Notes: generated from the letters alone by a model not told the origin. Numbered from the stretch's first letter, positions 26,501 through 39,500 are shown. The stretch is 64,000 nucleotides of DNA from an uncultured Acidobacteriota bacterium (GCA_963770895.1 CAVYRF010000002.1:1760001-1824000), one strand, 5' to 3'. Translations and numbers: made by a program.

Positions 26501-29500
26501 CGGCTGTACCGCAGCGGCGATTTGGGCCGGTGGCGCGCCAGCGGCGAGCTGGAGTACCTGGGGCGCATCGATCACCAGGTCAAGGTGCACGGTTTCCGCA
26601 TCGAGCTGGGCGAGATCGAGGCCGCGCTGCTGCGCCATCCGGCGGTGGCCGGCGCGGCGGTCGCGGCGCGCGCCGACGACGGCCAGGAGCGCCGCCTGGT
26701 GGCCTACCTGGTGAGCGCCGACGCCGACGGCGCCCTGCCGCCGGTCGAGGAGCTGCGCCAGTTCCTGCGCCGCACCCTGCCCGACCACATGGTGCCGGCG
26801 GCTTTCGTGCCGCTCGCGGCGCTGCCGCTGACACGCAACGGCAAGCTCGACCGCGCCGCCCTGCCGGCGCCGGGGCAGCTGCGGCCGCAGCTGGGCGAGC
26901 AGTTCGTCGCGCCGCGCACGCCCGCCGAGGCGACGCTGTGCACCATCTGGTCGCGCGTGCTGGGGATCGGCGAAGTGGGGGTCAACGACAACTTCTTCGC
27001 CTTGGGCGGCGACTCCATCCTGAGCCTGCGCGTCGTCGCCCAGGCCGGCCAGGAGGGGCTGGTGTTTTCTCTGCCCGATCTGTTCCGCGACCAGACGGTG
27101 GCGGCGCTGGCCGCGCGCCTGGCCGGCGACGCGGACGCCGGGTCGCCCGCCGCCGCGGCGCCGCCGCGGCCGGGGGCGCAGCCGTTCGAGCTGGTGCGGG
27201 AGGCGGACCGCGAGCGGCTGCCCGAGGGGCTGGAGGACGCCTATCCGCTGGCCTTCCTGCAGGCCGGGATGCTGTACCACATGGTTCTGACGCCGGACGA
27301 ACCGCTCTATCAGAACGTCGACAGCTGGCACGTGCGGGCGCCGTTTTGCGAAGCGTCGCTGCGCGACGCGGTGGCGCGCACCGTGGCGCGCCACCCGATG
27401 CTGCGCACCTCGTTCGACCTCACCAGCTGGAGCGAGCCGTTGCAGCTGGTGCACCCGACCGCCGTGCTGCCGATCGCGGTCGAAGACCTGCGCGGGCAGC
27501 CGGCCGCCGAGCAGGAGGCGCGGGTCGATGCGCTCATCGCCCACGAACGGCGGCAGTCCCTGCCCCTGGACCAGGCGCCGCAGCTGCGCTTCACCATCTA
27601 TCTGCGGGCGGACGATCGCTTCCAGTTCACCCTCACCGAAAACCACGCCATCTTCGACGGCTGGAGCCTGCACTCCACCCTGGTCGAGATCTTCGATCTC
27701 TATTTCGCCCTGCTGCGCGGCGAAGCGCCGGCGCCCTTGCCGCCGCCGCCGCTCACCTATCGCGACCACGTCGCCGCCGAGCGCGCCGCCGCTGCCTGGC
27801 CGGCGGCGGCGGCCTACTGGACCGCGGCGCTCGACGGCTGCCCGGTCACCGAGCTGGCCGCCTGGCCGCCGGTGTCGCCGCCCGCGGCGGCGGCGGGGGT
27901 GGACGACGGCCGGCCGCGCATGCGCAGCGTCCTGCAACCGCTGCCCCCCGCGGTGTTCCACGGCCTCAAGGCGCTGGCGCGCGCCGCCGCGGTGCCATGG
28001 AAGAGCGTGCTGCTCGCGGCGCACCTGCGGGTGCTGAGCCTGGTCACCGGCCAGGACGAGGTGGTCACCGGCGTGGTCGCCAACGGGCGCAGCGAAGAGC
28101 CGGGCGGCGATCAGGTGCGCGGCCTCTTCCTCAACACCGTGCCGCTGCGCGTCGCGACGGGCGCGGCGGCGGACGCCTGGGCCGACCTGGCGCGCACCGC
28201 CTTCGCCGCCGAGGAGGCGATGCTCCCCTTCCGCCGCTACCCCTTCGCCGTGCTGCAGCGCGAGCGCGGCCGGCGCCCGCTCTACGAGGTGGCTTTCAAC
28301 TACATCCACTTCCACGTGGCGCGCGACCTGATGCAGAGCGGCCGGCTGGAGGTGCTGGATTTCAAGCGCGGCCCCGGCGCCAACTTCAAGCTGATGGTCA
28401 ACTTCGCCCAGGACCTGGCGGGACGCGTCGCCACCTGCGAGCTCGAATACGACAGCCGCCAGCTGTGCGACGCACAGGTGGCCGCGCTCTCCGGCCTCTA
28501 TCAACGCACCCTCGCGGCCATGGCATCCGCGGCGGAGGTGCCGGCGCTGTCGCCGGCCGAACGGCACCAGGCGCTCTACGAGTGGAACGACACGGGCGAG
28601 CGCCGCGAACGGGCGGGCTTCCTGGCGCTCTTCGCCGATCAGGTGGCGCGGCACGGCGAAGCGGTGGCGGTCAGCGGCCGCGGCGGCACGCTCACCTATC
28701 GCCAGCTCGACGCCGCGGCGGAGCGGCTGGCGCGCCGCCTGCGGGCGCTGGGCGTCGGTCCCGAAGTGCGCGTCGCGCTCTGCCTGGGCCGCTCGCCGCG
28801 GCTGGTGGCGGCGATGGTCGGGGTGCTCAAAGCCGGCGGCTCCTACGTGCCGCTCGATCCCACCTACCCGCGGGAGCGGCTGGCCTTCATGCTGGAGGAC
28901 TCGCGCGCGGTGGCGCTGCTCACCGAGCGTCCCCTGCACGACGCCGCCGGGCAGGCGGAGAGCGCCGCCCCCTGCCACCGTCTCTGGGTGGACGAGCTGC
29001 TGGCTGGCGATGCGGCGGTGGACGACGGGCCGCCGGCCGGCGCGCCGGCGGCGGCGGGGCCGTGGCCGCACAACCTCGCCTACCAGATCTACACCTCGGG
29101 CTCGACCGGGCGGCCCAAGGCGGTGGGCCTCACCCACCACAACCTGGCCGCGCTCATCGACTGGACGCGCCAGGCGTTCACGCCGCTGGAGCTGGACGGC
29201 GTGCTGGCATCGAGCTCGGTCTGCTTCGACCTGTCGATCTTCGAGATCCTGGTGCCGCTCGCCCTGGGCGGCCGGGTGGTGATGGCGGAAAACGTCCTGG
29301 AGGTGCCGCGGCTCGCCGAGCGCGAGCAGATCCGGCTGATCAACACCGTGCCCTCGGCGATGGGCGAGCTGCTGCGCATGGCGGCGGCGCCGGCGACGCT
29401 CACCACCGTCTGCCTGGCGGGCGAGGCGTCGCTGCGCGACCTGGTGGCGCGGGTCCACGCCGCCGGCGTGCCGCGGGTGCTCAACCTGTACGGCGCTTCC

Positions 29501-36500: not shown

Positions 36501-39500
36501 CTGATCGACTTCGGCATCGACGCCGACCGCGTGCTCGCGGCGCTCGGCCACCTGGACGCCCTGCGCCAGCGGGTGACGCCCGGCGGCGCGGCGCCCGTGC
36601 CGGCGCACCTGGGCTCGACGCCGGCGCCGGCCGACCGGGTGCCCCTCACCGAGGCGCAAAAAGGGCTCTGGTTCATCACCCAGATGGGCCCGGAAGCCTC
36701 GCGCGCCTACAACGAATCGATCACCCTGCGCCTTGCCGGGCCGCTGCACGTCGCGGCGCTGGCCGCCGGCCTGACCACCGTGCTGGCGCGCCACGAAGCG
36801 CTGCGCATGCGGTTCAGCGGCGACGGCGAATACCTGTGGGCGGCGCCGGCCGCGGCGCAGCCGCTCCCCATGGTCGACCTGTCGGCGCTGCCGCCGCCGC
36901 GCCGCGACCTGGAAGTCGAGCGGCGCACGCTCGCCTGGGCGCAGGAGCCCTTCGACCTGGAGCGCGACGCGCTGCTGCGCACGACGCTGCTGCGCCTGGC
37001 GCCCGCCGACCACCATCTGGTGGTGACGACGCACCACCTGGCGGTCGACGGCCACGCCGTGGGGGTGATCTTCAGCGAGCTGGGCGCTCTCTACTCGGCC
37101 GCCTGCGAGGGGCGCGCCGTGGCGCTGCCCGCCGCCTCGGGCCTGCGCCAGCTGGCGCACCACGGCGATGCGGCGGCGGCCGCGGCGGCCGCGGCGGCCG
37201 CCGCCGAGGACGAAGAGTACTGGGCCGGACGCTTCGCCGACGCGATCCCGGTCCTGGCCCTGCCGCTGGACCGCCCGCGCCGCGCCGTCAAGCGCTACGG
37301 CGTCGCCCGCCACCGGCGCCAGCTCGACCCCGCCCTGGCCCGCGAGCTGCTGCAGTTCAGCCGCCAGCACCGCAGCACGCTGTTCATGACCATGCTCGCC
37401 GGCTTCAAGGTACTGCTGCACCAGGTCACCGGCCAGCGCGACCTGATCGTCGGCATCAACGCCACGCCGCCGCCCACCGCCGCCGACCGCGCCCTGGTCG
37501 GCTTCCGCGTCAACGGCCTGCCGCTGCGCAGCGAGGTGCGGGCGGGCGACACCCTGCCGGACTACCTGGCGCGGCTGCGGCGGCTGGTGGCGGAGGGCCA
37601 TTCGCACCAGGGATTCGTGCCGCGCAACCTGCTGCGCCGCCTCAAGGTGCGGCGCGATCCCGGCCGCTTCCCGCTGGTCGCGGCGGTGTTCGACCTGGAG
37701 CGCTCCAACCGCACGCCGCAGCTGGCCGGCCTGACCGTCGGCGTCGAAGCCAATCCGGTGGGCGCCAAGGTCGATCTCTACGTCACCGTCACCGAGACGG
37801 CAGCCGGCATCGAGGTGCGCTGCGACTACGACGCCCAACTGTTCGATGCCGCGACCGTCGCCACCTGGTTCGCCCACTACGAGACGCTGCTCGCCGCCGT
37901 CGTCGCGGCGCCCGGCCGGGAGCTCGACGACCTGCCGCGCCCGCCGGCGGCGCCGCGCCCGGCAGCCGCGCCCCCGCCGGCGCCGGCGCCGGAGTCCAAT
38001 CTCAGCCGCTACCAGCGGCTGCTCTGGATGAGCCAGCAGCTGGCCCCGACGGCGCCGCTGCTGGCCAACAGCTGCCTGCTGCGGGTGCCGCTGCCGATCG
38101 ATGCCGCGCTCTTCGGCCGCGCCGTGCAGTGCGTCGTCGACGGCAGCGACGCCCTGCGCACGACCGTCGAGGTGAGCGACGGCGTGCCGTCGCAACGGGT
38201 CCACGACCAGCTCCCCTGCCCGGTCCAGCTGCTCGACCTGTCGCCGCGGCCGCAGCCGCTGGCCGCGGCCAGGCAGGACGCGATCGCGCGCAGCCGGCGG
38301 CCGCACCAGGTCGACCGCTCGCTGGTCGATACCGCGCTCTACAAGCTGGGGGAGGCGGACTTCCTGTGGTACCTCAACGTCAACCACCTGGTCGCCGACG
38401 CCAGGGGAGCGTCGCTGGCGGTCGACGCGGTGTCTCGCGCCTACCAGGCGCTGGCGGCCGGCGCCGCGCCGCCGCCGGCTGGGCCGCCCTACGCCGACTT
38501 CCTGCGCCAGGAGCGCCAGACGCTGCAATCGGCGGCGGCGCGGCAGGCCGAGGCGCACTGGCGCGGCAAGCTGGCGCAGGAGCTCGATCCGCTCACCTTC
38601 TACGGCGCCGCGCCCGCCGGCGGTCCCGGGCCAGCCGAGCGGCTGGCCTGCGACCTCGGTCCGGCGCGCAGCGCGCAGCTGCGCGCGCTGGCGGCGCGCG
38701 AGCCGTTCTACGTCGCCTCCGCCGAGCTGTCGCTGTTCAGCCTGCTGGGGTCGCTGCTCTGCGCCTGGCTGGCGCGCATCGGCGACAACCGGTCGCTCGG
38801 GCTCGGCATGCCGTTCCACAACCGCACCAGCGATGCCGCCCGCCAGACGATCGGTCTGTTCATGCAGATCCTGCCGGTCCGGATCGCCGTCGATCCGGGC
38901 GACAGCTTCCCCTCCCTGGCCGAGAAGCTGGCCCTGGAAAGCCTGGAAAGCATCCGCTATCGCCAGTTCCCCGTCGGCAACCCGCTGCACCACCGCGCCT
39001 ACGACGTCGAGCTCAACTACGCGGCGATGGCGCCGGCCACGTTTGCCGGCACGCCGGCGGAATTCGAGTGGGTGCACGCCAACCAGCTCACCGAAAGCAT
39101 GGCGGTGCAGGTGGTGGACTTCGCCGGCGACGACAGCCTGGTGGTGCAGCTCGACTTTCACCAGGAGGTGTTCCCGGCGGCGCAGCGGCGCCTGGCGGCG
39201 GCGCACTTCCTGGCGGTGGTGGACGCCTTTCTGGAGGAGCCCGGCCGGCGGATCGATTCCTTCGCGCTGTTGAGCGGCGAGGAGCGCCGCCAGGTGCTCG
39301 CCGGCTGGAACGATTCGGCGCGCCAGCTCCCCGCCCGTTTCCGGCTGAGCTTCGCCGCGGCCTTCGCGGAGCAGGCGGCGGAAACCCCGCGGCGCACGGC
39401 GGTGGTGGACGACCAGGGCGCCCTGACCTATGCCGCGCTGGCGGCGCTCGCCGGCGGCCTGGCGGCGCGGCTGGCCGCGGCGGGAGCGGCGGCGGAGACG

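Follow-up and report, generated by a model that had tools for sequence, protein, structure and literature searches.

The stretch of DNA analyzed here, 64,000 nucleotides from an uncultured Acidobacteriota bacterium (GCA_963770895.1 CAVYRF010000002.1:1760001-1824000; hereafter the window), is occupied nearly completely by a single nonribosomal peptide synthetase (NRPS)/polyketide synthase (PKS) cluster on the + strand. One of its genes, here named E, encodes a ketosynthase (KS), an acyltransferase (AT), an acyl carrier protein (ACP), a class-III aminotransferase (AmT) and a fused luciferase-like monooxygenase (LLM), and the question raised by this locus is which substrate the KS receives. AmT cassettes, with or without an LLM, are known as the source of the beta-amino fatty acids with which iturins, puwainaphycins, microginins and ralstonins begin. 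The cluster holds a lipid-starter gene with a fatty acyl-AMP ligase (FAAL), gene H, as well as the NRPS genes A, C1, C2 and D. Our analysis supports the view that the KS of E is fed by the growing peptide and not by the FAAL-PKS acyl chain, as judged from KS trees, an active-site motif and a forced grouping. While the parts of the cassette are known, its feeding by a peptide is new.

The initial annotation had assigned a KS, a malonyl AT, an ACP, a class-III aminotransferase, a fused LLM and no ketoreductase (KR) to positions 28,615 to 36,570, and all of these domains were found close to where it had placed them (Table 1). Its span was retained in part: it starts at the last adenylation (A) domain of gene D and ends just past the LLM, but the protein runs on into two condensation domains (C and C'), an A domain, a thiolation (T) domain and an epimerization domain. 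Gene E starts at the ATG at 30519, preceded by the sequence GGGGGAGA, which resembles a ribosome-binding site, and the protein begins MAETGEDRRAFEVAIVG, leaving about 10 residues ahead of the KS. The GHSLGE and HAFH motifs of the AT presumably mark the malonyl type. Neither Pfam nor hidden Markov models (HMMs) made from the cluster's own domains detected a KR, dehydratase (DH), enoyl reductase or other reductive domain in the cassette, and the gap between AT and ACP measures only about 70 aa. The AmT keeps its pyridoxal phosphate (PLP) lysine within YGK, which, like FDEM, is invariant in all seven aligned sequences, and the LLM scores 460 bits with NCBIfam model TIGR04020 (cut-off 244). E thus shares with the known cassettes a non-reducing KS-AT-ACP unit followed by an AmT with its PLP lysine, a TIGR04020 LLM and an orthologous downstream C domain; priming of the KS by a fatty acyl or polyketide chain, on the other hand, is contradicted by the trees, motif and identities described below.

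AmT-LLM didomains are common (1544 of 2075 scored candidates at E ≤ 1e-3), and domain architectures and a first KS tree were taken from the best 120 homologues. Among these, 39 have the architecture FAAL-ACP-KS-..., 31 start with the KS, and most others begin with a carrier domain ahead of the AmT. The first tree comprises 74 KSs, 72 of them from the best 120 homologues, and contains two deep clades, each with a support of 100 in the Shimodaira-Hasegawa-like approximate likelihood ratio test (SH-aLRT). One of them includes the KS of gene H and all 39 FAAL-fused KSs. The KS of E is found in the other, together with 21 KS-first proteins and P0076, in which the KS follows an A domain and a carrier protein (CP) in cis. 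The peptide-fed type accounts for 23 of the 72 KSs that came from cassettes of the best homologues.

A second tree, again of 74 KSs, kept 35 from the first and was supplemented with KSs whose upstream domain is visible in loci of named genomes. These loci were searched for with an AmT-LLM alignment; about half of the 80 loci carried unrelated HemL-like aminotransferases, and the PKS-linked ones were used. Here the KS of E belongs to a clade of 25 rows (SH-aLRT 100) that includes all five cases in which A-CP precedes the KS in cis and both cases in which it does so in trans, but none of the 20 FAAL-cis and none of the seven PKS-fed KSs. One FAAL-cis KS (P0102) belongs to neither of the two large clades. 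Three of the cis cases (L024, L027 and L029) continue directly into AT-CP-AmT, and in L027 a complete C-A-CP elongation module stands upstream of the KS. The phylogenetic check proposed in the initial annotation, hybrid versus acyl-accepting KS, therefore places the KS of E with the NRPS-fed KSs. Likewise, the VQTACS motif that it had read as an NRPS-fed signature proved diagnostic: 30 of the 33 KSs in the clade have Q(T/S)ACS, against none of 80 other KSs, 70 of which have DTACS. Pairwise identities point in the same direction, with 50-61% between the KS of E and NRPS-cis KSs, 39-46% for FAAL-cis KSs and 43% for the KS of H. Moreover, forcing the subclade of E beside the clade of the H KS cost 316 log-likelihood units and was rejected in the approximately unbiased (AU) test (p-AU 1.3e-5).

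These results bear directly on the conventional alternative, in which the acyl chain of H would go to the KS of E as in iturin or puwainaphycin biosynthesis and the peptide of genes A to D would join elsewhere or belong to another product. Uptake of the FAAL-PKS chain by this KS was also what the initial annotation had named as the outcome that would overturn peptide feeding. Gene H is indeed present, 39 of the 72 KSs taken from the best homologues are FAAL-fused, gene A does not open with a starter-type C domain, and gene order in such clusters is commonly non-colinear. Nevertheless, we regard this alternative as highly improbable, because the KS of E lies outside the FAAL/PKS-fed clade, has QTACS in place of DTACS, is closer to NRPS-fed KSs than to the KS of H and resists being grouped with the latter. 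In addition, the C-terminal tail of H is short and not basic, and the order of E before F, the gene with the thioesterase (TE), is fixed, so that the products of A to D would have no release domain.

Protein termini add a pattern of their own. Gene D ends in C-A-T followed by ...EGDARAQARLRSRQARR, with six Arg in the final 14 residues, and its stop codon is separated from the start of E by 19 nt; E, in turn, opens with a short acidic head. The tails of C1 and C2, which likewise end in T domains but precede C domains, are acidic or neutral. An Arg-rich T tail facing a short acidic KS head was also found in L041 (a metagenome-assembled genome of the Pyrinomonadaceae) and in L023 and L022 (Streptomyces muensis), the latter two with a KS that is not followed by an AmT, as well as in L083 and L084, metagenome relatives with the same C-C'-A-T-E continuation. 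The second KS-AT-CP-AmT cassette of the genome (C2:3935871) has an Arg-rich upstream tail and an acidic KS head too. A number of KS-first proteins with an acyl-fed KS differ in carrying a head of about 35 aa, which we read as a probable coiled-coil docking domain. D may thus dock with its tail on the acidic head of E and hand over the peptidyl chain.

The second cassette belongs to another NRPS cluster (genome C2:3915000-3965000) with the order ...C-A-CP followed, on a separate protein, by KS-AT-CP-AmT-C-A-CP-...; its KS carries VQTACS, it has no LLM, and its AmT is 55% identical to that of E.

The most economical assembly line would run H, A, C1, C2, D, E and F, giving 13 amino acids and two ketide units, and with H feeding A each donor and acceptor is used once. 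The step from E to F is fixed, since E ends in an epimerization domain while F opens with a C domain of the DCL type and carries the sole TE. This match and the position of the only TE also exclude an iturin-like arrangement (H, E, A, C, D, F). The first C domain of A, LCL-like with Txo2/Txo1 as best matches and 39-43% identical to the other LCL domains, is the probable acceptor of the H lipid; its type would fit a PKS-ACP donor but is no proof of one. The lipid may, however, go elsewhere, because this domain is not of the starter type and a starter-type C domain lies inside E. From the A-domain codes, we presume that modules 3-6 include Val, Gly and Val, that module 8 is Gln-like, module 10 Thr, module 13 2,4-diaminobutyrate (Dab)-like and module 14 Ser-like.

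The fourth A domain of A (3201-4745) is unusual in its motifs LAHDPLQRD and NLYGSTE and its code DPRHFVLRA, and resembles, as we presume, aminoadipate- or Lys2-type domains.

Comparison with known systems suggests what the cassette might do. PuwE, RmyA-type and microginin-type enzymes (KS-AT-ACP-AmT-oxygenase-C-A-T) have the same domain order as E, the same TIGR04020-type LLM after a class-III AmT and an orthologous next C domain. Their cassette, however, stands where the peptide begins and receives a fatty or polyketide chain from FAAL/ACP or a PKS, while E has an NRPS-fed type of KS placed after eleven amino-acid modules; the carbon beside the new amine would therefore already bear an amide nitrogen. 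In its clade, its QTACS motif and its upstream peptidyl carrier protein (PCP), the KS of E resembles the KSs of hybrid NRPS-to-PKS modules. Such KSs usually precede KR or other reductive domains and lead to statine-like gamma-amino-beta-hydroxy acids, whereas in E the AmT-LLM pair follows. MycA and ItuA, like E, have an AmT embedded at a PKS-to-NRPS interface; MycA differs in its fused FAAL and in the lack of an LLM. It works with a trans AT and a fatty acyl starter. With Gln as amine donor, the AmT of MycA aminates a beta-keto thioester bound to an ACP (cited in PMC3870968), and for PuwE the AmT and oxygenase have been proposed to convert beta-keto into 3-amino-2-hydroxy acyl units (PMC4219810).

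By analogy with PuwE and MycA, we propose the following scheme. Gene H would make a 3-hydroxy fatty acyl chain and transfer it to the N-terminal C domain of A, after which A, C1, C2 and D would append eleven amino acids. Through its Arg-rich tail on the acidic head of E, the last T domain of D would deliver a lipo-undecapeptidyl thioester to the KS, which with malonyl-ACP would give a 4-(peptidylamino)-3-oxoacyl-ACP. The LLM would hydroxylate C2 and the PLP aminotransferase would turn the 3-keto group into an amine, either step being possible first, and glutamine would probably supply the amine, as it does for MycA. E_C1, the first of the two C domains in E, would then join the 4-(peptidylamino)-3-amino-2-hydroxyacyl unit (a vicinal 3,4-diamino-2-hydroxy acid, as predicted) with a Dab-like residue, and this residue would be epimerized; finally, gene F would add a Ser-like residue and its TE would release the product. 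That the first module of E acts as a peptide-fed beta-amino-acid cassette within this whole H-to-F scheme has, in our estimate, a probability of about 0.62.

Several observations weigh against this scheme. None of the best 120 homologues has an NRPS module fused directly before the cassette KS; the cis NRPS-KS cases come from more distant loci, and the upstream "A" domains of some of them may load non-amino acids. In L011, a close relative, the gene before the KS-first protein is not an NRPS. The group constrained in the rejecting AU test was chosen only after the tree had been seen, and two other AU tests, with a constraint satisfiable without moving the KS of E over a long branch, gave p values of 0.75 and 0.64. 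The first C domain of A is LCL-like and not of the starter type, while a starter-type C domain sits in E. Finally, no confirmation of the A-domain codes was found in the literature, so that the substrate names are presumptive.

A further point concerns how far the oxygenase proceeds. The KS could be peptide-fed while the LLM goes beyond C2 hydroxylation, to an alpha-keto group, a rearrangement or chain cleavage. Alpha-keto-beta-amino acids arise from PKS and oxygenase modules in myxobacterial peptides, and the cluster contains a second, free-standing TIGR04020 LLM (gene K). On the other hand, E_C1 is orthologous to the C domain following FAAL-fed AmT-LLM cassettes, some of them with Ralstonia or Nostoc names, and the products of such cassettes keep the 2-hydroxy-3-amino acid. 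Of the C domains that follow single-C cassettes, FAAL-fed ones included, 99 of 99 are nearer to E_C1 than to the second C domain of E (E_C2), and the same holds for 15 of 15 first C domains in cassettes with two. Oxidative cleavage of the chain, the alternative envisaged in the initial annotation, is disfavored, because the orthologues of E_C1 pass the chain on and two modules (C-A-T-E and C-A-T-TE) with the TE wait downstream, which would be left without a donor. Oxidation beyond hydroxylation as a whole appears unlikely. A parallel comes from the myxoglucamides, where genetics show that an FMN monooxygenase alpha-oxidizes an NRPS-fed, PKS-extended gamma-amino acid, via the alpha-hydroxy to the alpha-keto form (2026; PMC13638107). 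Mid-chain alpha-oxidation thus has a precedent. MxgC/OxMxgE share with the cluster of E the mid-chain NRPS-to-PKS extension, FMN-dependent alpha-oxidation, an interface domain and an alpha-ketoglutarate dioxygenase; they differ in having KR and DH domains, no aminotransferase and the oxygenase on a separate C-oxygenase protein, the oxygenases being likened by description (PMC13638107).

Judged from the relatives described above, the peptide-fed arrangement recurs in uncultured soil bacteria. In four loci of other organisms, an NRPS T domain with this docking tail stands immediately before the cassette. In full-text searches of the literature, we found neither a characterized product of a peptide-fed cassette, nor a natural 3,4-diamino-2-hydroxy acid within a peptide or a pathway to one, nor a precedent for mid-chain alpha-oxidation combined with an aminotransferase. 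If the cassette acts on a peptidyl substrate, it would place such an acid inside the peptide as a nitrogen analogue of statine, the motif type that binds protease active sites. For genome mining, the KS motif and the tail/head rule offer a simple way of sorting these cassettes.

An unusual feature of E is E_C2, which stands between E_C1 and the A domain. It is at most 31% identical to the other C domains of the cluster and is unlike those of the genome too. Its nearest solved relatives are RzmA-Cs, CDA-C1, VibH and EntF, its nearest curated models MxcG, the first C domain of PvdL and EntF, all of them C domains with acyl or aryl donors. The relatives are therefore of the starter type, but the position is not, E_C2 being located mid-protein and not at the N terminus of a first module. 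It was found in 16 of 115 cassettes, and the A-domain code DIWExTADD, in E DIWEMTADD, which we take to be Dab-like, occurs in all 16 of these versus 2 of the 99 without E_C2; this correlation may reflect common descent only. Of these 16 domains, 14 retain the catalytic His and two have lost both His. A metagenome search for E_C2 gave three true relatives among 11 loci, which did not include the contig of the closest homologue, P0003, and a second, word-index search returned mostly multi-module NRPSs and added only P0135.

E_C2 may be a relic, or it may add an acyl group to a second amine or carry out a ring closure. A tentative reading, rather doubtful at present, is that an amine, either the one newly placed at C3 or that on the side chain of the Dab-like residue, is acylated by E_C2, possibly with the H lipid or an acyl-CoA, or cyclized onto a neighboring amide, which would give a branched or heterocyclic backbone; this reading adds to the scheme above and does not replace it. 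MxcG acylates both amines of lysine, and the acyl or aryl donors of the relatives, the retained His and the tie to DIWExTADD would all fit such a role. Against it stand the possible single ancestor of the 16 cases, the two members without both His, the presence in L011 of another E_C2-like domain, degenerate and placed ahead of a different A domain, and the lack of an evident spare donor should H serve gene A. Combined with peptide feeding, this would make the cluster a representative of an uncharacterized lipopeptide family, in which the cassette writes a vicinal diamine and a hydroxyl into the middle of the backbone and E_C2 branches, lipidates or ring-closes via the new amine or the Dab-like side chain (e.g. 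to an imidazoline or tetrahydropyrimidine). We consider this combination possible but speculative; if true, such branching or ring logic is not described for any known nonribosomal peptide.

It was also considered whether E_C2 is an interface domain that places the TauD-family hydroxylase encoded by gene J, acting in trans, on the Dab-like residue. Interface domains are C-like domains before A domains (PMC13638107), the cluster contains a TauD gene, and TauD homologues lie beside related cassettes in L027 and L084. In these two loci, however, the domain right after the TauD gene matches not E_C2 but C2_C2, the HHxxxDG-lacking C-like domain of gene C2. As E_C2 moreover resembles starter C domains and keeps its catalytic His in 14 of 16 cases, we rejected this assignment, which seems very improbable. 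C2_C2 is the better candidate: given that domains of its type directly follow the TauD gene in L027 and L084, C2_C2 and gene J probably form an interface/hydroxylase pair. A C2_C2-type domain precedes an A domain in L041 too.

With the peptide-fed KS of E in mind, the end of gene D deserves attention. The initial annotation had described an Ala-like A-T and a basic tail; the A-T unit and the Arg-rich tail were confirmed, but the Ala-like assignment is not secured, the code being DLFNCALTH and the C domain of this module (D_C3) being of the McyA/AmbE type. This "modified amino acid" type is linked with modified or dehydrated residues. As McyA and AmbE are the closest relatives of D_C3, the chain may reach the KS with residue 10 or 11 already modified, by dehydration or in another way.

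In the first A domain of D (22106-23575), Cys replaces the usual Asp at the alpha-amino-binding position (GFCVSFQE); the rest of its code is Pro-like. Because of this replacement, its substrate may be one without a free alpha-amine.

The features of the cluster are collected in Table 1. Gene limits were set by Pfam searches on whole open reading frames (ORFs) and on overlapping 600-aa tiles, and by three-frame reading of the junctions together with the HMMs made from the cluster's own domains. At a window GC content of 75% (the host genome measures 8.16 Mb with 70.7% GC), many entries of a mechanical long-ORF list were spurious, and such a list was not taken at face value: the ORF starts 13989 and 30027 are wrong, and the A-T gene C1 is hidden in another frame.

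Table 1. Features of the NRPS/PKS cluster and of gene E; positions are those of the window, except for the one marked genome, and residues are those of the E protein
Feature	Position	Strand	Description
Gene A	genome C2:1751567 (upstream of window) to window 13079	+	7170 aa; (C-A-T)x6 and terminal C
Gene B	13076-14014	+	small methyltransferase between the terminal C of A and its A-T partner
Gene C1	14017-15945	+	stand-alone A-T; other half of split module
Gene C2	15942-20591	+	C, interface-like C without HHxxxDG, A (presumed Gln-like code), T
C2_C2	17451-18647		C-like domain without HHxxxDG (PALCAD), before the Gln-like A
Gene D	20588-30499	+	(C-A-T)x3 NRPS; proposed to feed the KS
D_C3	27239-28549	+	third C of D; NHAIFDGWS; nearest solved McyA (E 5e-86), AmbE
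Last A of D	28634-30133	+	presumed code DLFNCALTH; possibly a small residue
Last T (PCP) of D	30209-30421	+	GGHSL; proposed donor to KS of E
C-terminal tail of D	30422-30496	+	Arg-rich, ...ARAQARLRSRQARR; read as putative docking element
Gene E	30519-42632	+	4037 aa; KS-AT-ACP-AmT-LLM-C-C'-A-T-E
N-terminal head of E	30519-30551	+	short, acidic, MAETGEDRRAF
KS of E	30552-31676	+	residues 12-386; Pfam E 8e-64; VQTACSS; Cys-His-His triad with both His motifs
AT of E	32118-33083	+	residues 534-855; Pfam E 2e-46; GHSLGE and HAFH
ACP of E	33285-33488	+	residues 923-990; LGVDSL; then Ala/Pro-rich linker of ~210 aa
AmT of E	34119-35348	+	residues 1201-1610; class III (GSA-aminomutase-like); E 5e-47
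LLM of E	35559-36503	+	residues 1681-1995; FMN-dependent, MupA/Atu3671 family; E 7e-46
E_C1	36636-37934	+	residues 2040-2472; C domain, HHLAVDGHA, LCL-like
E_C2 (C')	37992-39263	+	residues 2492-2915; extra C domain, NHLVADA, starter/aryl-acyl type
A-T-E of gene E	39366-42509	+	A 2950-3440 (code DIWEMTADD), T 3465-3535, epimerization 3552-3997 (HHLVVDGISW)
Gene F	42629-46915	+	DCL-type C (LSPMQEGMLFH), A (presumed Ser-like code), T, TE; end of line
Gene G			ABC transporter, between F and H
Gene H	48618-55562	+	FAAL-ACP-KS-AT-KR-ACP; lipid starter
Permease gene			MacB type; after H, before J
Gene J	58071-59126	+	TauD-family dioxygenase
Gene K	59161-60285	+	free-standing LLM, TIGR04020, at cluster edge; 46% identical to LLM domain of E
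Gene L	60173-62245		AsnB-type amidotransferase at cluster edge
Regulator gene			divergent, HTH type; after L

Two further observations concern the surroundings of these genes. The terminal C domain of A and the separate A-T gene, with the methyltransferase gene between them, form a split module (11700-15945). In L011 (1-6553), a MacB permease gene, two desaturase-like genes and an ornithine-cyclodeaminase-family gene precede the KS-first cassette gene.

Beyond the cluster, the genome is exceptionally rich in NRPSs: a single C domain used as a tblastn query gave more than 60 C-domain matches on two of its contigs.

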